From contig CAYWPX010000002.1 of the NCBI GenBank assembly GCA_964460615.1, positions 7,220 through 71,219 on the forward strand: a stretch of DNA of 64,000 bases, in the 5' to 3' direction. Shown one piece after another: positions 46,191-57,855 of the stretch (the first letter of the stretch is position 1; the number at the start of each line of letters is the position of its first letter). Source of the DNA: an uncultured Planctomycetia bacterium (GTDB lineage Bacteria; Omnitrophota; Gorgyraeia; CAYWPX01). Position numbers and translations under genes: made by a program. The notes beneath the pieces were generated by a model that saw only the letters and a program-made list of their open reading frames with translations, did not search any database and was not told the DNA's origin.

Positions 46191-46457
46191 TCACCACATC
46201 AGAAATGGGTCATATGAATACCCATCTGGTCCGCCTGCTATACACCTTTTCTGTGACAATAGATCATCGATGCTGTAAACTTCCGGAGTGGTGTAAATTC
46301 TTACTTTCCTGCTTTCGTCTTGAAGTCTACAAGTTATCCTCTCGATCTCTTGCACAACAGACCAATCAGACGTTTGTAGACCAGGATTAAATGTTTTTTT
46401 GTCATCATCGTAATAAAATAGAATCCAATATTTCTTAACTTTTAATCTATTTAGCAT
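46191..46457 (-). CDS. hypothetical protein (element-borne)
   Basis: 88 aa, no recognisable family. Confidence 0.3.
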   Translation of the reverse strand: MLNRLKVKKYWILFYYDDDKKTFNPGLQTSDWSVVQEIERITCRLQDESRKVRIYTTPEVYSIDDLLSQKRCIAGGPDGYSYDPFLMW

Positions 46458-46472
46458 ATAATTTTACCCCCT

Positions 46473-48155
46473 TTAATAATCGCTTGGATCCGGTACGAAG
46501 CGATCCTTCACTTCCCTGTGAACCTGCGGATGGTCTATATATCTTAAATCGGGTATACCTCTGAGTTCTCTGCTTTCCGTTATTCGCCGTGCAGTCGATA
46601 CTGGATGCTTCCATACGCGAGGGGTAATCTCGATATTGCTTACAATCATTTCAAGAGCATCCGGCCCGTCATCGTGCAATCCATTCGGGAAAAATCGGAA
46701 TTGATCTAATAAGGTCTTATGTGACAGAGAAAACTGGATAGTTCCTCTATGTATCAAGGAATCCAGTACGTGAATCCTCTTATTCTTATCCCCTCTATTA
46801 TCAACACCTATGATAGGCATATAGAGCCCCTCTGTATCAAGCTGTTGCTGTAGGTCATCCCTCATCAATTTCTGAAAATTATTTATTTCAATAATAAAGG
46901 ATGACGGCCTGTATAGCCTGCATAAATCCATTATCCGGGATACGGTTTCCTTGGGGCCTCTGCGATGGATATCGGCCTCTACAACATACAGTCGGCCATT
47001 CTCGCGGTCTCTTGCCACCATAATTATTGCCGCATAATCTCCTCGCGAGGTGTCGTCGCCCACACACGGGTCGCAGCTACCGATGAAGTCAAGCCAGTCT
47101 TTGCGCGCATCCAATAAATCATGCACGGAATCGTAGGTTTTCTCGATATAATGGAATTTAGCTACGTTAAAAACCGACGACTTGGGATCATAAGGCTCGT
47201 TTTGCAGTTCGCACGAGAATGACAGATGGTTTTCTTCGCGCAGAACCGCAAGATCGTAATAGCTCCATTTTTCAGGCCAAAGAAGCTCGACTCCTTCATC
47301 CATAGCCGCTTTATTTGCCTCATAGAGGGCCCTGGCGGCATCCGGGCCGTATTTGCCCTCGAAGTCCATCTTGTTATTATAGATTTCTGACCACTTCGAC
47401 CAGAGAGACATGTTTTTGGGGTCCGTTCGTATTGCTTTATATATTTTCTTTATCCATTCACGGTTATGATCCGGGCTCAAATATTCATTCAAAAGGCAAA
47501 GCGGATGATATAAAGTTCCCATGAAGATGAAATTCGTATTATCATCTCCGGCCATGAGGACCGACTTGGTAAACCATATTCTTAACTTTTCCATCGATGT
47601 TTCCGAAGCGGTGTCATCCGGTGTTTCTACGTCGTCAATGACTACAACGGTCGGACGGTCTTTGCCGTATTTCGTTCCGCGTATCTTCTGCCCCCGGCCA
47701 AGCGCATGCACCTTTATGCCGTTAAGCGTTTCTATTTGGGCTTTAGTCCAGCGTGGTGGTTTGGGCCTATCTTCTTTTTCAAATATCTCCGGGAAGTCGA
47801 TCCTGAATTTTTCATTCTCGGTCAACTCTTTCTTGACGTTATCGAGTATCTGTATTGCCTGATCCGCCGTATCGGAAAGAATCACTATGAATTTTTCCTT
47901 CTGATAGCAAATGGCATAGATTATATAAAATAATGATATAAGCGTGGATTTAGCAAAGCCTCGCGGCGCGGCTATGGCCACTCTTTTATTTCTGTCTTTC
48001 ATAATTGTTTCGAGAAGCTCATAAACCTCTTTATGCGCGGAAGACGGCTTGATCTTAAAGTAATGCGGCAAGTACATCTTGGCAAACGTATATAGGGATT
48101 TTTCCGAAGGCTTCTTACGCAGTGAACTGATTCCTTTTAATATATTATTTGTCAT
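46473..48155 (-). CDS. phage terminase large subunit
   Basis: Walker A VAIAAPRGFAKST, Walker B VVVIDDVETP, and a C-terminal RNase-H-like nuclease region with acidic residues. Confidence 0.8.
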   Translation of the reverse strand: MTNNILKGISSLRKKPSEKSLYTFAKMYLPHYFKIKPSSAHKEVYELLETIMKDRNKRVAIAAPRGFAKSTLISLFYIIYAICYQKEKFIVILSDTADQAIQILDNVKKELTENEKFRIDFPEIFEKEDRPKPPRWTKAQIETLNGIKVHALGRGQKIRGTKYGKDRPTVVVIDDVETPDDTASETSMEKLRIWFTKSVLMAGDDNTNFIFMGTLYHPLCLLNEYLSPDHNREWIKKIYKAIRTDPKNMSLWSKWSEIYNNKMDFEGKYGPDAARALYEANKAAMDEGVELLWPEKWSYYDLAVLREENHLSFSCELQNEPYDPKSSVFNVAKFHYIEKTYDSVHDLLDARKDWLDFIGSCDPCVGDDTSRGDYAAIIMVARDRENGRLYVVEADIHRRGPKETVSRIMDLCRLYRPSSFIIEINNFQKLMRDDLQQQLDTEGLYMPIIGVDNRGDKNKRIHVLDSLIHRGTIQFSLSHKTLLDQFRFFPNGLHDDGPDALEMIVSNIEITPRVWKHPVSTARRITESRELRGIPDLRYIDHPQVHREVKDRFVPDPSDY

Positions 48156-48156
48156 T

Positions 48157-48822
48157 TTATTCCTCCTTTTTGGGTTTTATCTGTTTAAGCACTCCTACCT
48201 CGAAGGCCATCTCAGCCTTTTCGATCTTGAGCGTCAACGATTTTGCCTCTTCCTGAAGTTCCGGCGTCAAAGTATCTGTTTCCTTCGCGGTATTTATAAC
48301 ATCTTCTATCATCTTTCTAAGCTCGGGAAATGACGCATCTTGGCCTATGCCGTCTATGTGGTGATAAATATCGCCGACGACGCCCACGGGGGCTTGCGGA
48401 AGAAATCCGAGCGCCTGGAGTTTCGTTATCGCATCAATAAATACCTTGGCGGCAAATAGCTCTGCCTGCGCCCTTTCGGAAACCGACGCATCCTTGGATC
48501 TGGCGAGCTTCATCAGATGATCTCTGTGGATACGACCATACATTATCGTTTCACTGGCGAGATTCTTTCGCGCATCCGCATCTAAAGTATCCGCGTTACG
48601 CCTTATCACCCATTCGATATCCCTTTTAATAGTTTTTTCCGAACGTTTAAAGAACTGCGCCATAGCAGGCACGGCCATGCCCTCTCGAAGTAACGTATCA
48701 ACGCAAGCTTGCCGCTCTTCTTTGGTCAGGTTATCTACAGAAAACTCTCCGTCCTTTATCCGCTGAATAAGTGAAAACGTCGGCTGATCATTCTTATCCC
48801 GCAAAGAATCGTTATTTTGCAT
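48157..48822 (-). CDS. HTH-containing protein, possible terminase small subunit
   Basis: Sits immediately upstream of TerL with a 1-bp gap; HTH-like AMAQFFKRSEKTIKRDIEWV. Confidence 0.35.
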   Translation of the reverse strand: MQNNDSLRDKNDQPTFSLIQRIKDGEFSVDNLTKEERQACVDTLLREGMAVPAMAQFFKRSEKTIKRDIEWVIRRNADTLDADARKNLASETIMYGRIHRDHLMKLARSKDASVSERAQAELFAAKVFIDAITKLQALGFLPQAPVGVVGDIYHHIDGIGQDASFPELRKMIEDVINTAKETDTLTPELQEEAKSLTLKIEKAEMAFEVGVLKQIKPKKEE

Positions 48823-50119
48823 CGGTAGGCTCCTTCAGATATTTATCCACGACATTCTGCGAAACATTCTGCCTGCCAACATAGGCTATATATCGGCGAA
48901 TGATCCCGTCTATGTACTTTGGCTCTATCTCCATGCCGTAGCAACGTCTGCCAAGACTTTCTGCAGCTATGAGACTGGACCCACTGCCAAGAAACCCATC
49001 GAATATAACGTCGCCCCTTACAGAGCTATTGCGGATTGCTCTGACCGGAAGCAAAGTGCTCTTCTGCGTCGGATGAATCAAGTCTGACGCCTTGTCCCTT
49101 GCCACTTCCCAGAGATTACTCTCATTCGTAGGGCCATACCACTTGTGTGGGGCGTTCTTAAGCCATGAAAAAATGCAGAACTCTGTTTGCTGGTTGTAGT
49201 CTCCATATGAAATCGCAAACGTAGGCTTAGCCCAAGTAATGATTGTTGAGATATGGAACCCAAGTTCTTTTAGTACTTGGTGAACAAAATAGAACTTGGC
49301 ATGCCCATTCCAAATATAGGCTGATGCCCCTTCTTTTAAATAGCGTCTTATATTGCTTAAGACGCTTTTAATCCATGCCTCATATTCTTCCTCGCTTAAA
49401 TTATCTTTATACAGCGCGTCCCATCGCTTGGATTTCTTGGGTCGTGCTGTAAGATCGGGGCGATCTTGGGCAAGATAGAAACAGCCGTACGGAGGGTCTG
49501 TATGGAGGAGATCTATTTTCGCATCTTGCATTAACATATCCATATCACTTTCTAATGCAGAGTCCCCACACATAATGCGATGGTTGCCTAACTGAATAAT
49601 ATCTCCTCTCTTGGTGATAGGCTCCTTAATGGCGGCAACTGCGGCTTCAAAATCGAAGTCATCCGGGTCCTTAGGCTCACGTAGCCCTTCTAAAAACTTG
49701 TCTACTTCAGAAGAGTCAAAGCCGGATAAACTTAAGTCTATATCCGGAAGCTTGCTTAACTCTTCAATTAGAAGTGGCAGCTTATCAAAATCCCATTCGC
49801 CTTGTATGCGATTTAATGCCAAATTTAAAAGCTTTTCCTTCTCTATGGAAAGGTCAACGATGACCACGTCTACCTCTTTATAGCCAAGCTCAATCAAGGC
49901 GCGTAGCCGCTGATTCCCTCCCACGACATGCCATGTTCGCGAGTTAACAATAAGCGGCTCGTAGCACTCGTAGGTCTTAATACTCTCCACGAGCTTCCTA
50001 AATTCATTTTTTCTCATCTTGCGCGTATTGTACGGCGCAAACTTTACCTGCTCAATAGGCAACTTGTCTCTTTTCATGGGTATTTTCCTTTTATTTTTTG
50101 TGTAAAAAATAGTCTGCAA
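48812..50119 (-). CDS. ParB-like nuclease domain fused to DNA N6-adenine/N4-cytosine methyltransferase (beta-class)
   Basis: N-terminal ParB/Srx motif HVVGGNQRLRAL; MTase motif IV LLHTDPPYG precedes motif I VIFDGFLGSGSS. Confidence 0.75.
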   Translation of the reverse strand: MQTIFYTKNKRKIPMKRDKLPIEQVKFAPYNTRKMRKNEFRKLVESIKTYECYEPLIVNSRTWHVVGGNQRLRALIELGYKEVDVVIVDLSIEKEKLLNLALNRIQGEWDFDKLPLLIEELSKLPDIDLSLSGFDSSEVDKFLEGLREPKDPDDFDFEAAVAAIKEPITKRGDIIQLGNHRIMCGDSALESDMDMLMQDAKIDLLHTDPPYGCFYLAQDRPDLTARPKKSKRWDALYKDNLSEEEYEAWIKSVLSNIRRYLKEGASAYIWNGHAKFYFVHQVLKELGFHISTIITWAKPTFAISYGDYNQQTEFCIFSWLKNAPHKWYGPTNESNLWEVARDKASDLIHPTQKSTLLPVRAIRNSSVRGDVIFDGFLGSGSSLIAAESLGRRCYGMEIEPKYIDGIIRRYIAYVGRQNVSQNVVDKYLKEPTDAK

Positions 50120-50414
50120 TCGCTCTCTCTGGTGTCACTGAATCCGGGAAGTTCACTACCCAGTGAATGCCAGTAAATCCACGTGTCAGTATTAGGTAGT
50201 TTTCATACACGACACATTCGTGCTTAGCTCGTGGAGGGCAACATCTTTTTGACTGTCTTTCTTCTGTAGTTTCTTTGTCGAAGAAGATCCTATTGCATCG
50301 TATGCAGATGACAAGCTTGCCTTGTTCTAGCGTCGCAAGTTTATCTTCAAGCGATACTCCACCCAACCACAGCTCCAGTTTCTTACATTTAATAATTTTG
50401 TTTTCGGGCTCCAT
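50091..50414 (-). CDS. hypothetical small zinc-ribbon-like protein
   Basis: CxxC...CC cysteines (ICIRCNRIF...KRCCPP). Confidence 0.3.
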   Translation of the reverse strand: MEPENKIIKCKKLELWLGGVSLEDKLATLEQGKLVICIRCNRIFFDKETTEERQSKRCCPPRAKHECVVYENYLILTRGFTGIHWVVNFPDSVTPERAIADYFLHKK

Positions 50415-50716
50415 TTTTTATCACCTCCTTTCCAATAGCCTTTCTTTTGGGCGGAGACAATAAAAAAAGGGCCCAAAAGAAGATAGAAATTCACATATTC
50501 AATTTCCATCCTCAATTGGGCCCCGATGCGTTGTTCTGGAATATGGCCCGGTACTTCTACGACTTATTACTTGTAAAAAAATAGCCCTAGCTCTCATTCA
50601 TTCTCATCATCAATTTTGAGCTAGGACTACAATATTCGACGTCAGCTTCACCGTCAAATTAAGTGTATCACAAAATGTTGAAATGTCAATGGCATATCAA
50701 GGAAGATGCATATTAA

Positions 50717-51826
50717 CTATTTTTGCCAAAGCGCCCATAAATCATATTCTTGAAATGCTTTTTTATTATCCGTTAAAAAATGCAAAGATTGTCGCCGACC
50801 CTTAGCAGCAGATCCTGCTTCATGAATTGTTAAAATCTTCCATCCCGTATCCTTCAAAGATTGTCTTAGTATATATACTGGATCGCTTTTCCTTGAATTG
50901 AGACTCCCGAAACGAACTATTAGCCGGGCGTTTTTCTCGCACTTGGTTCCCACATTTTCCCATACTTTTTTAAGCTCTGAACAAAAAATATCAACACTCG
51001 AATGATCAATTTGTCCACACGACGAATAATCAACTTCCGCCTTTCCACCAATAAACCATAACCTAAGCCATTGATCGGGTACATATGTACGCATGCCATA
51101 ATAAGGAGGCGATGTTATGACCCAATTAAATTTGTTCTGAATTTGAGAATATACCTTGGATTCACTACTATCTCCTAGAATAGCTTCCCCTTGTGCTTTA
51201 ATTTCATTACAATAATAACGTTCGGCTCTTCTTTTTATTATTTCAATCACATCTACTTTATTTGGCTGTAAATCCAATCTTTCCCAATATTTTATAGCAT
51301 AGTCGGGCTTGGGCGCATATGTTCTAGGACATTGATTCGATAAATAGCTGGGGAACGATTTAGTAACGGGCCCGTGAAGGGCGCCCATAATTATAGCGCG
51401 TAAAGCTCTTCGTGTTTCAGAAACGCAATTTTTCATTAGCCCTTCTCTTAAGCGGCACATAATTGGCAATACACTCTTATGATATGCTAAGCTCCAAAAT
51501 TCATTGTCTGGCATCTCAGCTGGTTTTTCAATTTCGTCCAGGATTCTTTTTGCAGAATTTACAATCATTGCCGGAGATGTATTAGCTAACTTTGCTTGAG
51601 TTATTGCAACTGCAGTAGGATTACTATCTATTCCTATTGATGATAATTTTAAAGAACGGCTGGCATAATTTGTTGTTCCTCGTCCGCAAAAAGGATCTAA
51701 AACCCATTGTCCTTCTTTTGCATATTTCTTTAATATAGAAAAAGGGAAAACTAGCGGAAACATTGTAAAGTAGGGACAAATCGCATTAAGCGTATAATCT
51801 TTTTTTTGTTTAATCAGCTTGCTCAA
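50717..51826 (-). CDS. DNA methyltransferase (motif I DPFCGRGTT near N-terminus, motif IV TSPPYYG about 190 aa later)
   Basis: An SAM-binding FxGxG-type motif and an SPPY catalytic motif (SPPY/F is common in N4-cytosine MTases). Its start overlaps the HerA-like gene stop by 4 bp (ATGA). Confidence 0.7.
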   Translation of the reverse strand: MSKLIKQKKDYTLNAICPYFTMFPLVFPFSILKKYAKEGQWVLDPFCGRGTTNYASRSLKLSSIGIDSNPTAVAITQAKLANTSPAMIVNSAKRILDEIEKPAEMPDNEFWSLAYHKSVLPIMCRLREGLMKNCVSETRRALRAIIMGALHGPVTKSFPSYLSNQCPRTYAPKPDYAIKYWERLDLQPNKVDVIEIIKRRAERYYCNEIKAQGEAILGDSSESKVYSQIQNKFNWVITSPPYYGMRTYVPDQWLRLWFIGGKAEVDYSSCGQIDHSSVDIFCSELKKVWENVGTKCEKNARLIVRFGSLNSRKSDPVYILRQSLKDTGWKILTIHEAGSAAKGRRQSLHFLTDNKKAFQEYDLWALWQK

Positions 51827-53946
51827 GATGACTTCTTTCCTGTTTTCACATAAGTTTTATTATCACGCTGAGAGTTTCTAAATGAATGCCATGCTTCATT
51901 TTGTGTTCCAAAAATGGTATTTAACGCCTTGGGAACAAGGGCATAAGCTATCTCATCTTTATTTTCAAGAGTATCGGGTAATTTTGAAAGGAGAAACGCC
52001 TTAATAGCCCCGTATGCTGCTCCATCGCCTTTTATTGCATCTATTAATTTCTTATCGTTCTTTAGCGCTTCGACAGCGCTGTTTTCATACACTTCTTTTG
52101 GGTCTGTTACCTTCTCGCTTTCAGCGGATGCAGAAATAGCATCAGTGCCTATTTCTGATGTCGATGCTTTCTTTTCAACCTTTATTGCCTTCTGAAGCAT
52201 TTCATCGAATTTCTTTTTTAATTCCTTCGCATATGTATCAACTGCTGCTTTATTATAGTGAGGATCTAACGTTTTAAATAAGTACTCAAAAGAAAGTACA
52301 CGAATTGGCAAAGGATAGGGTGTACCACCTTCTGAACTCCAAAACACACCTTGTCCTTTAATAGGCTCGTTTAAGAGTCCACTTAAAAGATCTTCACTAA
52401 AATGTGCATTGGCCTTTTTTGTTGCTGACAGATCCGCCATTGATAACAAGTGAAATATAAACCAATTGTCGCCCTGGCTTAAAATCTCCACGGGGATACT
52501 TCCTGGCTGTTGAGTAATCAATAAAGCTCCTAAATCATACTTTCTACCTTCCTTTACCCAAGTTATATACGGCTCCGCAGAGGTAGCGTTTTCATTTAAA
52601 ACTGACTGAGCTTCTTCAACAACTGCAATAGTAGGTATCGTTTTTGGTTCTGCTTCGGTAAACTCCTGTTGATTTCTATCGAATATTCTTCGTAAAATTA
52701 AACCAGATAGAATTAATGCTTGCCCTCCCCTCATCTGGGAGACATCCACAATGCACAATTTACCTTCACCAAGAGCATGTATTAATAGGTCCATCATCTG
52801 GCTAGTTCTATCATGGATCATTCTGATTATGGCAGTCATATTAGCGCGGGCAGCCAATGCTTCAGCTTCTTGGCTATCTTTAAGTTCTAGAATACGGCTA
52901 ACATCTTCTAATGCGGCAGAGTTGCCGTTATTATCAATCAGATTAACTAATTCTTCCCATCGATTCGAAGGTAGCCCTTTTAATTTTCTTACATTCTGCT
53001 GCTCCTGCTTATCTGGACTCAACGCGATCGCAACAACATCTGCTGGCTTTAATCTTCTGATGTCCAATTTAATCCCACCCGCTACAAAAGACTGATAGAA
53101 TTTACTTTTGTTTTGCCTTGAAGTAAATACAACGACTTTATCCTGCAATGCCGGGACATCGCATAATCCAGGCCTACCCTTATCATCTGGCCAAAAATAT
53201 TCTCCATCGGGATCAAAAATTACTGTGCCTACAGGGACTTTCTTATTTCCTTTTTTTGTAACTGTTGGGGTTGATTCATATAGTTTGCTAAAAAGCAATT
53301 TGTTAAGATTTGATTTACCAAAACCAGCCCTTGCAAAAACAAAGCTTCTACGCGAGACTAGTTTATCGATGGGAAATTTTATCAATACTTCGGGGGCTTT
53401 GAGTTGCATCCAATCTTTTACTTCTAATACTTTACTTTTCTCAGCGTAAATATATTCTCCTAAAGCAAAATGTCCAATACTCGCTCCGTCAATATTATGG
53501 CTGGCTATTTCCTTTAAAACGTCTTCGGATAAGAAAGCTACTTTGCTTCCAACATGCGGGAGACGCCTATGCGAAGGTACAAACGTAAGTTTACCATGAG
53601 AATTAGTTCGAACTACTCCTAAAACTCTTATATCAACTCGATACTTAAGATATTGCTCACGTAAATCTTCTGGCACATCACGTTTATCCCGGAGCGCCCT
53701 AATATTAAATTCTTCACCGGAGTCAGAAGAAAGCTTTCCTTCTGCGCAAAAAGACGTTATTCTTCCTAAGACAGCTTCCTCAGCAGTTTCAAGCTGAACT
53801 AGAAGAAATTGCCCATGCATAGGTAAATTTTGGAATTCATTCTTATAAGGAAGGATTAAATCCGCATGAAATTCCAATCCACCTTGTGTAAACCCCTTAA
53901 AGACACCCACAACTTGGTCGGTTGGGAACAATTCTATTTTTGACAT
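51823..53946 (-). CDS. HerA/FtsK-type ATPase (HerA-like helicase)
   Basis: Walker A FARAGFGKSN, Walker B IAVVEEAQ, and downstream LLITQQPGSI, a TQ(R)P-type motif characteristic of the HerA/FtsK clade. An N-terminal barrel-like region precedes the ATPase core. Confidence 0.55.
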   Translation of the reverse strand: MSKIELFPTDQVVGVFKGFTQGGLEFHADLILPYKNEFQNLPMHGQFLLVQLETAEEAVLGRITSFCAEGKLSSDSGEEFNIRALRDKRDVPEDLREQYLKYRVDIRVLGVVRTNSHGKLTFVPSHRRLPHVGSKVAFLSEDVLKEIASHNIDGASIGHFALGEYIYAEKSKVLEVKDWMQLKAPEVLIKFPIDKLVSRRSFVFARAGFGKSNLNKLLFSKLYESTPTVTKKGNKKVPVGTVIFDPDGEYFWPDDKGRPGLCDVPALQDKVVVFTSRQNKSKFYQSFVAGGIKLDIRRLKPADVVAIALSPDKQEQQNVRKLKGLPSNRWEELVNLIDNNGNSAALEDVSRILELKDSQEAEALAARANMTAIIRMIHDRTSQMMDLLIHALGEGKLCIVDVSQMRGGQALILSGLILRRIFDRNQQEFTEAEPKTIPTIAVVEEAQSVLNENATSAEPYITWVKEGRKYDLGALLITQQPGSIPVEILSQGDNWFIFHLLSMADLSATKKANAHFSEDLLSGLLNEPIKGQGVFWSSEGGTPYPLPIRVLSFEYLFKTLDPHYNKAAVDTYAKELKKKFDEMLQKAIKVEKKASTSEIGTDAISASAESEKVTDPKEVYENSAVEALKNDKKLIDAIKGDGAAYGAIKAFLLSKLPDTLENKDEIAYALVPKALNTIFGTQNEAWHSFRNSQRDNKTYVKTGKKSS

Positions 53947-53957
53947 AAATAACTCCT

Positions 53958-55088
53958 TTAGTATCGCTTTTGCGACGGGTCGGTATCTTGAAGATGAAAT
54001 GTATCTAATTTAGGTGATTCCTTACCTAACACATTACGGATAGCATCAAAAATTTGATCTTGCAATATATCAAAATCGAAATCAACTAATGCAGCGTTTT
54101 CATGTGCTTTTTGAAGGCACAGAGGATAGAATGGTATAGGAAAACCATTAATCGCATCTGCGAGTAGATGCCCAAGAATTGTTTGAGCCTGTGGAGTTTG
54201 AGGCATAAAAATATCCACTGGCCAAATCGGATCTCTGGGACTATTCCCAAATTTAACAAAATACATTTTACCCGCAACAAATTTATTTACTTCTCCTTCG
54301 GTGTCTTCACCACGGGCATATTCGGACCACACATATGCCTTCTCTTCAATCTCCTGTGGTATTTCAACATAGGCAGGATAATCACAGTCAAGTATATTCT
54401 CCAGTGCCATTGTTAGACGATAGCGAGATAATACCTTGCTGTGTTTTGCGAGACCAACCAGAAATATCTTCCTGCGTTTTTCTTTTTGTTGTTTTTCAAT
54501 CATCTTACCTAGATTTTCTCTATATTTCTTAAAAAGGTCTTTTGCAAATACTTTGCTACGCAGCAATCCATCGAAAACAATCAATGTATCTGTGCCAAAG
54601 TCTTTTTTCATAACTGAATAAAGAATCGCCCACTCTACAAGCTCTCTATAAACCTGAACCCAACTAATGCTAACCGGCTGATCATTATCGTTACTTCTGA
54701 TCATATGACTTAATTCGGTTAACTGTTTTACTCCTAAATCATACATCATTTCACCAAGGGCTGTTTTAGGGGTACCATTTGCGTTGAACTGTCGAGCGGT
54801 TAACTGTGAAACCTTGGTAGTAGGCGTAATAGCCTCTAAGCAATATTCGTTGTTACTAGAGTCTACAACCCTAATAATCTGAACCAAAAAGGGATCGAAC
54901 TGGACTTGATTATTTCCACCATCGGTTCCTACGAGTGAAATGGATGTGGTGCTTCTTGATTGGATTTTGCGAACGTTGGCTTTTAAAGGCTGGATTTCTT
55001 TTCTTAATTGATCGAGTATTGCTTTATCTGATTTTATGCGCTCTGATATTTCACTTTTAAGTAGCTTTTGACTGTTTGGGTCTATCAT
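53958..55088 (-). CDS. NurA-like nuclease (candidate)
   Basis: SLVGTDGGNNQ and IVFDGLLRS resemble the two DG(S/L) catalytic-aspartate motifs of NurA. A 12-bp gap to the HerA-like gene with a GGAG RBS gives the canonical nurA-herA order. Confidence 0.4.
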   Translation of the reverse strand: MIDPNSQKLLKSEISERIKSDKAILDQLRKEIQPLKANVRKIQSRSTTSISLVGTDGGNNQVQFDPFLVQIIRVVDSSNNEYCLEAITPTTKVSQLTARQFNANGTPKTALGEMMYDLGVKQLTELSHMIRSNDNDQPVSISWVQVYRELVEWAILYSVMKKDFGTDTLIVFDGLLRSKVFAKDLFKKYRENLGKMIEKQQKEKRRKIFLVGLAKHSKVLSRYRLTMALENILDCDYPAYVEIPQEIEEKAYVWSEYARGEDTEGEVNKFVAGKMYFVKFGNSPRDPIWPVDIFMPQTPQAQTILGHLLADAINGFPIPFYPLCLQKAHENAALVDFDFDILQDQIFDAIRNVLGKESPKLDTFHLQDTDPSQKRY

Positions 55089-55226
55089 TGGCCAACCTGG
55101 TTATTTATCATAATTATCTTATATTATACAGCTTATAGCACCATTCGCAATCGAAAAATACCTCTCTATTTACCTTGCTATATCTCTGATTGTATGGCCC
55201 TATTGACCTAAGGAAAGGAGGCCAAA

Positions 55227-55670
55227 ATGAGCGAGATAAATGCACTTAAAAACGCGTCGGCCGAAGAGCTACTTAGGCAATATAAAGAGCTCTATGGCGA
55301 GGATGCTGCCAGTAGCCATAAGCTTTATTTATGGCGAAAGGTCGCCTATAAGCTGCAAGAGCGCGAACATGGCTGCCTATCAGCCAAGGCTAAGAATCGG
55401 CTAAAGAGCCTTATCGAGGAATACGATCCGATAAATAATAAGGCGCTAAGGCCTGACAACCCTGTAGTAAGCCAGACCGCTCCCGGCAAAGATAAACGTA
55501 TACCGATTCCGGGAACGGTGATAACAAAGGATTATAAAGGCTCAAACTACAAGGTCAAAGTCTTAGAAGCAGGCTTCGAGTATGACGGAAAGATCTATAA
55601 GACGCTATCAGCCATTGCTAAGGAAATAACCGGGGCACATTGGAACGGATATCTGTTCTTTAATTTGTAG
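55227..55670 (+). CDS. DUF2924-family protein (typical partner of large serine recombinases)
   Basis: 147 aa, AAGGAGG RBS, sits directly upstream of the recombinase with an 8-bp gap. Confidence 0.5.
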   Translation: MSEINALKNASAEELLRQYKELYGEDAASSHKLYLWRKVAYKLQEREHGCLSAKAKNRLKSLIEEYDPINNKALRPDNPVVSQTAPGKDKRIPIPGTVITKDYKGSNYKVKVLEAGFEYDGKIYKTLSAIAKEITGAHWNGYLFFNL

Positions 55671-55678
55671 GAGGTTTT

Positions 55679-57274
55679 ATGGAAAAGGTTGAAAAGAAAA
55701 AGGTACGCTGCGCTATTTATACACGTGTATCGACATCAGAAGGATTGGAACAAGAGTTTACTTCCCTAGACAATCAGCGCGAGTCCGCTGAAAGCTACAT
55801 CGCCAGCCAGAAGTCAGAAGGATGGACGGCTTTGCCAGAACGTTATGACGATCCTGGCTACACTGGCGCTAATACTGACCGCCCAGCCCTGCAAAAGCTC
55901 ATGGCTGATATCAAAGAAGGTAAGATTGACTCAGTGGTAACTTATAAAGTAGATAGGCTTTCGCGATCACTGCTCGATTTTAGCCAACTCCTAGAGTTCT
56001 TTGAGCAACATAGCGTAACATTCGTTTCTGTAACGCAGCATTTTAACACCAATACTTCAATGGGTCGGCTTACCTTGAATATACTCCTCTCCTTCGCACA
56101 GTTCGAGCGCGAGATCATCTCAGAGCGCACACGCGACAAGATGGGCGCAGCCAAGAAAAAAGGCAAATGGATCGGCGGCAGACCGCCTTTAGGCTATGAT
56201 TTAGATAAGGTTAACCATAAGCTGGTTATAAACCCGAAGGAAGCTAATCTTGTTAAAGAGATCTTCGGCCTTTACTTAGAAAAGCGCTCTCTTCTATCGG
56301 TAGCAATAGCGCTGAATAGCAAGAATCATACCACAAAAAGCTATACAGCTTCTGATGGCAAGAAGTTTGGCAGTGTAAAGTTTAAAAGCACAAGCGTTCA
56401 GCTAATAGTTAAAAATCCGCTATATATCGGCAAAGTAAGCTACCACGGACAGATTTATCCAGGCGAGCAGGAACGTATAATATCCGATGAGATATTCCAA
56501 AAAGCCCACCAAATACTGGCTGATAACCGACGAGAACGCAAAGTGGCTGGCATTACGAGCAACGTGGGCCTCCTTAACGGCATCTTGCGCTGTAAGGCCT
56601 GCAATAGCACCATGTACTACATCTACAGCATGAAAGGCAAAAACAAGTACTATTATTACCTTTGTATGAACGCGCAGAAACGAGGTTATAAAAGCTGCCC
56701 CACGCGCTTAGTCGCAGCCCAAGTAATGGAGAATAGATTTATGGAGTTCTTGAGGTCGATATCCAAAGACCCGAGGATCGAACCTAAAGCCTGGGAAAAG
56801 TTAACCCTCGAAGAAAAGATACCTATCCTTAAATCAATCGCCAAGGTTGCGCATTACGACGCTCATAACGAAACCTTAGAGATAGTGCTGCATAAGGGCG
56901 ATAGAAGCCACGAATTTGCGCTTAAACTGGCCGAGTTAAAGCATATACCGCATCATCGCAGACAGCTCGAGGTTAGCAAGGAACCGCTTGTACGCCAAAA
57001 CCTGATCCTAGGATACCAGATAGACGCGATTTCCAAAGAACGAGGCCGAAGCTTGCGAGAGATCGCAAATTGGCTCGGCATGAACCACCCAAGGCTCTGC
57101 CAGATCGTCAACATGCTGCTCCTCTCGCCTAAAATACAAGAGGAGATCCTCCTCTCCGATAACAAGGCGCTATTCAACATCCCCGAATACAAACTACGCG
57201 ATGTAATCGCAGAGGTCAGCTGGGATAAGCAGCAGGAAGTCTGGAATAAGCTCGTCAAATCCTGCCAAAACTGA
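55679..57274 (+). CDS. large serine recombinase (resolvase/invertase catalytic domain, recombinase domain, zinc ribbon)
   Basis: VRCAIYTRVSTSEGLEQEFTSLDNQRE...DRLSRSL carries the catalytic Ser; CKACNST...C zinc ribbon; 531 aa. Confidence 0.85.
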   Translation: MEKVEKKKVRCAIYTRVSTSEGLEQEFTSLDNQRESAESYIASQKSEGWTALPERYDDPGYTGANTDRPALQKLMADIKEGKIDSVVTYKVDRLSRSLLDFSQLLEFFEQHSVTFVSVTQHFNTNTSMGRLTLNILLSFAQFEREIISERTRDKMGAAKKKGKWIGGRPPLGYDLDKVNHKLVINPKEANLVKEIFGLYLEKRSLLSVAIALNSKNHTTKSYTASDGKKFGSVKFKSTSVQLIVKNPLYIGKVSYHGQIYPGEQERIISDEIFQKAHQILADNRRERKVAGITSNVGLLNGILRCKACNSTMYYIYSMKGKNKYYYYLCMNAQKRGYKSCPTRLVAAQVMENRFMEFLRSISKDPRIEPKAWEKLTLEEKIPILKSIAKVAHYDAHNETLEIVLHKGDRSHEFALKLAELKHIPHHRRQLEVSKEPLVRQNLILGYQIDAISKERGRSLREIANWLGMNHPRLCQIVNMLLLSPKIQEEILLSDNKALFNIPEYKLRDVIAEVSWDKQQEVWNKLVKSCQN

Positions 57275-57608: not shown

Positions 57609-57686
57609 TGGGGTGGGTAACCGGATTTGAACCGGCGACGTCTTGAGCCACAGTCAAGTGCTCTGCCAGGCTGAGCTATACCCACC
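57609..57686 (-). tRNA. tRNA-His (GUG)
   Basis: Minus strand: G-1 then GUGGGUA acceptor; anticodon loop CUGUGGC (GUG); T-loop GGTTCAAATCC; discriminator C73; encoded CCA. Cloverleaf folds by hand. Confidence 0.85.
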
Positions 57687-57855
57687 TTATTAACTTACTA
57701 TGCGAAGTCCGCCATTTTTATGGCAGGCTGCCTGCCCGCCAATGTTTGTGGCGGGAGCTATACCCACCGTAAAACAGTTACCAGTATACAGTGGACAGTT
57801 AACAGTCAAAGCTTTTTTAAACTGTCAACTGTTGTCTGTGAACTGTAAACAAAAT

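Follow-up and report, generated by a model that had tools for sequence, protein, structure and literature searches.

What do a NurA-like nuclease, a HerA-like ATPase and a DNA methyltransferase accomplish together when they are encoded side by side on a mobile element? The question is raised by three genes at positions 50717-55088 of a 64,000-nucleotide stretch of contig CAYWPX010000002.1 (hereafter, the window), which derives from an uncultured Planctomycetia bacterium assigned to the Omnitrophota by GTDB. Our preferred answer, to which sequence comparisons lead us to give a probability of about 0.55, is that the trio is a mobile defence cassette, akin to restriction-modification and related to TdpABC. 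This reading is best supported because of the homology to TdpAB, the linkage of the three genes, their mobility and their company of defence genes. The family is compact, widespread and uncharacterised. It is not a new kind of system, however, but a variant of the Tdp type linked to methylation, and its architecture has a published twin in Thermus.

Three enzymes and their relatives

All three genes are intact open reading frames on the minus strand, ordered as nuclease (53958..55088, 376 residues), HerA-type ATPase/translocase, presumably hexameric (51823..53946, 707 residues) and dedicated methyltransferase (50717..51826, 369 residues). The nuclease and ATPase genes are 11 nt apart, and the ATPase and methylase genes overlap by 4 nt. 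An earlier reading of the DNA (the first-pass annotation) described three tightly packed genes over this span and with these lengths; each motif that it quoted is found in the sequence, and its assignment of the proteins to NurA-like, HerA-like and DNA methyltransferase families holds in all three cases. Catalytic-type residues are conserved throughout, in keeping with the predicted activity of each enzyme. A sigma-70-like promoter on the same strand (55123..55150; TTGCGA, 16 nt, TATAAT), approximately 35 nt upstream of the nuclease start codon, matches 10 of 12 consensus positions and is likely to drive the operon; promoter-like sites in the region are not enriched over shuffled sequence, and the candidate is thus a consensus match only.

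Comparison with Pfam favors the annotation's HerA assignment outright (DUF87, PF01935; 73.1 bits against a threshold of 23.2, E=4.6e-20) and leaves its NurA assignment just below threshold (PF09376; 20.3 bits against a gathering score of 21, E=4.2e-4), with profile positions 3-253 of 254 aligned. A nuclease-family alignment of 33 sequences, searched against all PDB sequences, returned TdpB as its one match (E=0.0036); the alignment spans the FDG motif and the subsequent GV(A/T)K(H/R)S block, and pairs D173 with the DG motif of TdpB. The AlphaFold model (predicted local distance difference test score [pLDDT] 70.6; predicted template modeling score 0.75) has the RNase H-like NurA fold, with the D56-bearing strand poorly modeled, and Foldseek places TdpB by far the closest in fold (E=6e-7). 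On the basis of these profile and fold matches, the 376-residue protein is a NurA-superfamily nuclease closest to TdpB. Candidate catalytic residues are D56 (GTDGG), D173 (FDG) and H329, which are kept in at least 98% of 88 homologues; their assignment follows the known NurA motif pattern. The residue used for comparison with this pattern is Asp49 of TkoNurA (PMC12977600). Of 1.84 billion cluster representatives at 50% identity, 499 belong to this family.

The 707-residue protein is a HerA-type ATPase closest to TdpA, its best PDB match (E=2e-24 with the single sequence, 8e-26 with the family profile). Sulfolobus HerA follows (4e-15), and the ATPases of Sir2-HerA and DUF4297-HerA are weaker still. 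Walker A (GFGKS208) and Walker B (VxEEAQ442-447; VVEEAQ442 here) are invariant in 25 homologues. Anti-phage HerA models from PADLOC and NCBIfam cover just ~100-180 C-terminal residues at scores far under their cut-offs (53 bits for NCBIfam HerA_antiphage, cut-off 800). A C-terminal tail (residues ~551-707; window 51823-52296) is much more variable than the core (27-41% versus 60-89% conserved), and this ~150-residue extension is missing from both TdpA (586 residues) and TdtA, the Thermus ATPase discussed below (568 residues). It may be a docking or sensing region. Among proteins with near-identical HerA cores, tail identity is 0.53 where the methylases differ and 0.67 where they are alike. This co-variation does not serve us as a sign of contact: the DNA for the tail borders the methylase gene, and shared recombination breakpoints would explain the signal equally well.

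The third protein is a DNA amino-methyltransferase of the N4/N6 type with intact S-adenosylmethionine (SAM)-binding and catalytic motifs. It matches Pfam PF01555 through its motif-I region (E=1.1e-13) and aligns colinearly with several PADLOC type II methylase (MTase_II) models. Motif I (DPFCGRGTT44) and motif IV (SPPY239) are invariant in homologue sets of 56, 32 and 40 sequences. In the AlphaFold model (pLDDT 81.8) the fold is that of a Rossmann methyltransferase, a helical insert separates these motifs, and the chain is colinear, though loosely, with E. coli Dam. The spacing of the motifs had been called unusual in the first-pass annotation; motif I, helical insert and motif IV instead represent the ordinary alpha-class order, as the colinearity with Dam and the PADLOC models indicates. 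Because of the SPPY motif and weak PDB sequence matches to cytosine-N4 methyltransferases, our guess is that the product is probably N4-methylcytosine.

The closest relatives of the nuclease and ATPase thus belong to one system. TdpABC is said to be a phosphorothioate-dependent defence of thermophiles (An et al. 2025, Nat Chem Biol), with cryo-electron microscopy structures of TdpAB available as 8wet, 8wfd and 8y1k. In that study, a TdpA hexamer and a TdpB dimer are reported to move together along unmodified DNA and break it down; on self DNA they are stopped by the sulfur mark. Others class TdpABC among restriction-modification-like systems, based here on phosphorothioate, and name tdpC as sufficient for making the mark (PMC12914056, PMC13223576). 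The window likewise encodes a TdpA-like ATPase and a TdpB-like nuclease side by side, at the remote level of 15-18% identity in structural alignments. It differs in carrying a SAM-dependent N4/N6 methyltransferase in place of the phosphorothioation enzyme TdpC (no tdpC-type gene was found), in the variable ATPase tail, and in its hosts, which are mesophilic environmental bacteria from many phyla rather than thermophiles.

A second precedent lies in ICETh1, an element of Thermus thermophilus HB27 integrated at a tRNA gene. Its operon encodes the type IIG enzyme Tth111II/TthHB27I, a NurA-like protein (TTC1878, 377 residues), TdtA (TTC1879, AAS82221, 568 residues) and a PF01555 methylase (TTC1880, 410 residues), with spacings of 4, 2 and -4 bp (PMC5365140). 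A 2017 publication presented it as an operon for DNA donation ("transjugation"), the function assigned to it, and donation requires the type IIG enzyme as well as TdtA and the NurA-like gene (PMC5365140, PMC7767461). Judged from the published description, ICETh1 and the window share the order of nuclease, HerA/FtsK ATPase and PF01555 methylase, a nuclease of nearly the same length (377 versus 376 residues) and the 4-bp ATPase/methylase overlap, and each operon is carried next to a tRNA gene by a small integrative element. They differ in the length of the ATPase (568 versus 707 residues), in the integrase (tyrosine integrase versus serine recombinase) and in the type IIG enzyme, the first gene of the ICETh1 operon, for which the window has no counterpart. 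The first-pass annotation knew of no described NurA-HerA-methyltransferase triad. The 2017 account of ICETh1 supplies one, and TdpABC is an already described restriction-modification-like system built on a HerA-like/NurA-like pair.

Other known systems are less similar. The end-resection complex of archaea and Deinococcus draws on the same two superfamilies, with adjacent genes and a ring translocase presumed to feed a nuclease dimer. Sir2-HerA and DUF4297-HerA (Gao_Her) also combine a HerA-family ATPase with an effector on mobile defence loci, but that effector is an NADase or a Cap4-like nuclease rather than NurA, and those systems have no modification gene; neither a Sir2 nor a DUF4297 effector is present beside the window ATPase. 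Against PADLOC-DB v2.0.0 the nuclease has no match, the ATPase has partial HerA matches, the methylase matches generic type II models and no system is matched, so the cassette fits none of the systems catalogued there. Our literature search found no paper on an anti-phage NurA-HerA-methylase system. Partial ATPase matches to mad8 of MADS (E=2.6e-11) and to DndH (E=2e-4) were dismissed as generic P-loop similarity; the other components of the full MADS (mad1-8) and DndFGH (dndF, dndG, dndH) gene sets were not found.

We also sought a link to Thermus and Tdp with a 160-residue TdpA segment, and abandoned it: the genes retrieved were all fragmented or interrupted by insertion sequences, and lacked informative context. 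Two of these loci (L166:1684-6081 and L167) contain a distant TdpA-like HerA gene, 40% identical to the TdpA C terminus, that is split by an IS3-family transposase. In L166 it is preceded by a NurA-sized gene of 380 codons with a weak match to the nuclease family (hhalign E=0.014). The context of both loci is phage-like, with a GP38-type tail-fibre domain and no methylase nearby.

Linkage of the three genes across loci

Whether the three genes constitute a unit can be asked from either end. A nuclease-anchored survey yielded 80 loci from one-genome-per-species contigs, approximately 71 of them informative for the presence of the methylase, and a methylase-anchored, alignment-based scan of metagenome contigs yielded 75 informative loci. 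NurA and HerA are adjacent in all 80 genome loci. All-against-all clustering of open reading frames from these loci recovered the nuclease (79, counted as full-length frames), the ATPase (75) and the methylase (55) as shared families; there is no other conserved gene in the 80 loci, the remaining clusters being shadow frames that overlap cassette genes. In ~48 loci the methylase immediately follows the pair on the same strand; in three it is downstream but on the opposite strand, in two directly upstream and in another two within 6 kb. From the opposite direction, 68 of the 75 methylase-anchored loci have HerA, plus NurA where the contig allows, adjoining the methylase; 47 of these follow the window order, 15 are convergent and six are arranged otherwise, including methylase-NurA-HerA. 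The association thus holds from both sides and outlasts rearrangement, a point in favor of function over mere co-inheritance. The methylase family is nearly exclusive to the NurA-HerA pair, and the three genes are inherited together across phyla. That the genes form a functional unit, as first proposed from the window alone, is borne out by both surveys (methylase in ~55 of 71 and the reciprocal 68 of 75 loci), and chance neighborhood does not explain it.

Within this unit the methylase is the more exchangeable part. In 88 complete triads, pairwise identities of NurA and HerA are tightly correlated (r=0.95), and those of the methylase follow the pair less closely (r=0.71). Some triads have NurA and HerA proteins that are 86-95% identical, with methylases at ~46%. 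Since similar NurA-HerA pairs carry divergent methylases of the same family, the methylase has been exchanged, always within its own family.

The hosts span approximately 15 phyla: Bacteroidota, Alpha-, Beta- and Gammaproteobacteria, Desulfobacterota, Chloroflexota, Acidobacteriota, Gemmatimonadota, Nitrospirota, Verrucomicrobiota, Planctomycetota, Myxococcota, Armatimonadota, Latescibacterota, Binatia, Cyanobacteria and Abditibacteriota. Across them, homologues are 56-70% identical to the window proteins (88% for the closest metagenome match), a pattern that indicates horizontal spread under strong constraint. Cultured hosts include Methylococcus capsulatus Texas (ATCC 19069), Cupriavidus cauae (MKL-01), Desulfacinum infernum (DSM 9756) and Thermomonas flagellata, making the function of the cassette directly testable.

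Several loci depart from the window arrangement. Four betaproteobacterial loci without the methylase (L005:4544-7855, L010:4487-7858, L012:4426-7884 and L023:4632-7886) encode a ~1100-residue protein directly upstream of NurA on the same strand, which begins with a Sacsin-like (HATPase-type) domain, ends with a NOV_C domain and may take the place of the methylase as third component. In size it resembles the 1106-residue type IIG enzyme of ICETh1, but the domains differ. Several members of another, proteobacterial set (L002, L008, L014, L018, L055 and L070) have a divergent WYL-domain regulator immediately upstream of NurA, followed by type I restriction-modification genes (two HsdM and HsdS) or, in L055, by the cassette methylase. 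L002, L014, L018 and L070 also carry a DUF3223/HamC-like gene downstream. This organization suggests WYL-controlled expression and composite defence islands.

Restriction, donation or repair

If the cassette does act as a restriction-modification-like system, we envisage that a hexameric HerA ring would thread double-stranded DNA into a NurA dimer for processive degradation, as in archaeal HerA-NurA and TdpAB. The methylase would mark the resident genome, probably with N4-methylcytosine, and the mark, or methylase bound at its sites, would stop loading or translocation on self DNA, such that only unmarked incoming phage or plasmid DNA would be destroyed. Because only one methylase family ever accompanies NurA-HerA, the methylase probably joins the machine physically or acts as its specificity subunit, in the manner of type I and III systems, and is not an interchangeable stand-alone type II enzyme.

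A number of observations weigh against this scheme. The methylase family was not found in 14-16 of the ~71 informative NurA-HerA loci (1.5-8 kb covered on each side). In these loci NurA and HerA are intact and 90-94% identical to methylase-bearing relatives, so the pair is evidently tolerated without an adjacent methylase; loss or relocation of the methylase has been recent and repeated, with NurA-HerA retained. The methylase alignment has no indel-variable target-recognition region, and no mechanism is known by which the HerA pore, which contacts the DNA backbone, could detect a methyl group on a base. Searched by tblastn, 72,556 plasmid and 50,697 phage records yielded no homologue of the nuclease, and a single IMG/VR contig carries it. 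In Thermus, the methylase mutant of ICETh1 is viable with a minor effect only, and the demonstrated role of the NurA-like gene and TdtA there is in donation, not in restriction (PMC5365140, PMC7767461). The logic set out in the first-pass annotation, in which the methylase marks self and the nuclease-helicase attacks non-self, stands in one part: TdpA and TdpB, the closest solved relatives of the window proteins, are the restriction half of a modification-dependent system. The strict marking role is weakened by the roughly one-fifth of loci that lack the methylase and by the Thermus knockout. The defence reading is reasonable but unproven.

The same observations lend some weight to an explanation that we consider unlikely but worth keeping in view, in which NurA-HerA is a self-sufficient, trigger-activated effector comparable to Sir2-HerA and DUF4297-HerA and the methylase is an accessory rather than the mark that separates self from non-self. 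The methylase might then tune the system, act as an epigenetic factor or shield element DNA from other restriction systems. Its recent loss or relocation beside intact NurA-HerA in at least three groups, the viability of the Thermus mutant and the presence of other partners where it is missing (the Sacsin-like/NOV_C protein, or the WYL regulator with type I restriction-modification genes) all fit this explanation, as does the fact that HerA partners in known defence systems act without modification (PMC11291478, PMC11472057). However, approximately 90% of the methylase family lies beside HerA-NurA in several gene orders, which would be odd for a dispensable accessory, and the closest solved relative, TdpAB, is modification-gated.

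Donation offers a different view of the locus: as in ICETh1, the ATPase would push chromosomal or element DNA out and the nuclease would process it, serving horizontal transfer instead of defence. The order and tight spacing of the Thermus genes (2 bp, then the 4-bp overlap) and the position of both islands at tRNA genes make this conceivable, as does the requirement for the NurA-like gene and TdtA in Thermus donation. We nonetheless regard it as improbable. The likeness to ICETh1 is one of gene order, sizes and layout as published; the type IIG enzyme needed in ICETh1 has no equivalent in the window and is no conserved neighbor in the 80 loci; and transjugation relies on a highly competent recipient, a peculiarity of Thermus. 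Moreover, cassette neighbors are mostly defence rather than transfer genes, and fragments released by a DNA shredder with a restriction-like function could themselves produce the Thermus phenotype as a by-product. A portable donation engine of the ICETh1/TdtA type that is not, or not only, immune is a very doubtful description of the cassette. Least credible of all is a housekeeping role in double-strand-break end resection, as for archaeal and Deinococcus HerA-NurA, with the methylase nearby by chance. The patchy, horizontally transferred distribution with 64-70% identity across ~15 phyla, the location on islands among defence genes, the tight linkage to a dedicated methylase and the lack of Mre11/Rad50 or RecJ linkage in the 80 loci all oppose it, and NCBIfam repair-HerA equivalogs score the ATPase at ~51 bits against cut-offs of 800-970.

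If the methylation-gated, restriction-like reading is correct, the cassette would be a widespread sibling of the recently solved TdpABC in which an ordinary base methylase replaces phosphorothioation, and a HerA-NurA "thread and shred" machine would have been coupled to different DNA marks. It would also add to restriction-modification a class whose nuclease is processive and not site-specific, and whose hosts are chiefly environmental bacteria that current defence catalogues under-sample. The Thermus transjugation operon would then merit a second look, as donation might be a by-product of the shredder. Should the donation reading prove true instead, nuclease-assisted pumping of chromosomal DNA, so far known in Thermus alone, would be encoded on islands in ~15 phyla.

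The carrier island and its neighborhood

The mobile-element location proposed at first pass is supported by integrases and recombinases near the cassette, which sits among defence genes. Elsewhere, its neighbors include tyrosine integrases, serine recombinases, a plasmid replication initiator and WYL regulators, together with defence-type genes: type I restriction-modification, DISARM DrmD, UvrD/GajB-like helicases, Hachiman HamC-like DUF3223, SIR2, HEPN and GmrSD. In the window, a divergent DUF2924 gene upstream of the nuclease and a large serine recombinase gene (together 55227..57274, plus strand) form the integration module of the island, outside the cassette and adjoining tRNA-His (57609-57685). 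The same pair flanks the cassette in loci L024, L029, L073, L081 and L082.

Comparison with the syntenic metagenome contig L082 (2693-7055, against window 50717-55088) sets the NurA-HerA pair apart: NurA is 88% and HerA 92% identical, the methylase 60% and other island genes 42-60%. This contrast implies that the pair moved recently between related islands, in company with another methylase allele. The G+C content of the cassette (37-39%) is also lower than that of the other island genes (43-46%). The cassette is thus cargo that moves independently of its carrier.

On the far side of the cassette, and outside it, the minus strand encodes a ParB-N6/N4 methylase fusion, a 221-residue helix-turn-helix protein that is small-terminase-like by position, and a terminase large subunit (46473..50119). 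This terminase block is syntenic in L082 and L133, and the order of island modules recurs in L082 and partly in L133. Portal and capsid genes are lacking beyond the terminase, where hemerythrin, cupin, DUF488 and rubrerythrin-like proteins are encoded next. The carrier (46191-57274) therefore looks like an ~11-kb island or phage remnant rather than a complete prophage, and could be a phage satellite or decayed prophage. The ParB-methylase fusion (48812-50119), ~600 nt beyond the cassette, combines a ParB N-terminal domain with a beta-class N6/N4 methylase, matches a PADLOC type II methylase model (E=2e-87) and belongs to the terminase module of the island. Between it and the cassette methylase, an open reading frame of 107 codons (50091-50414) has CxxC and CC...C spacing reminiscent of a zinc ribbon, with no match in Pfam, NCBIfam or PADLOC and no homologue in related loci.

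A search for attachment-site repeats was set aside: no direct repeat of at least 14 nt joins the tRNA-His region to the rest of the window. None is expected, because the carrier uses a serine recombinase, and the left end of the island stays undefined. A 14-nt copy of the tRNA-His 5' end (GAGCTATACCCACC) is present at 57673-57686 and again at 57755-57768, between tRNA-His and tRNA-Pro, and may be a tRNA fragment from an earlier integration event.

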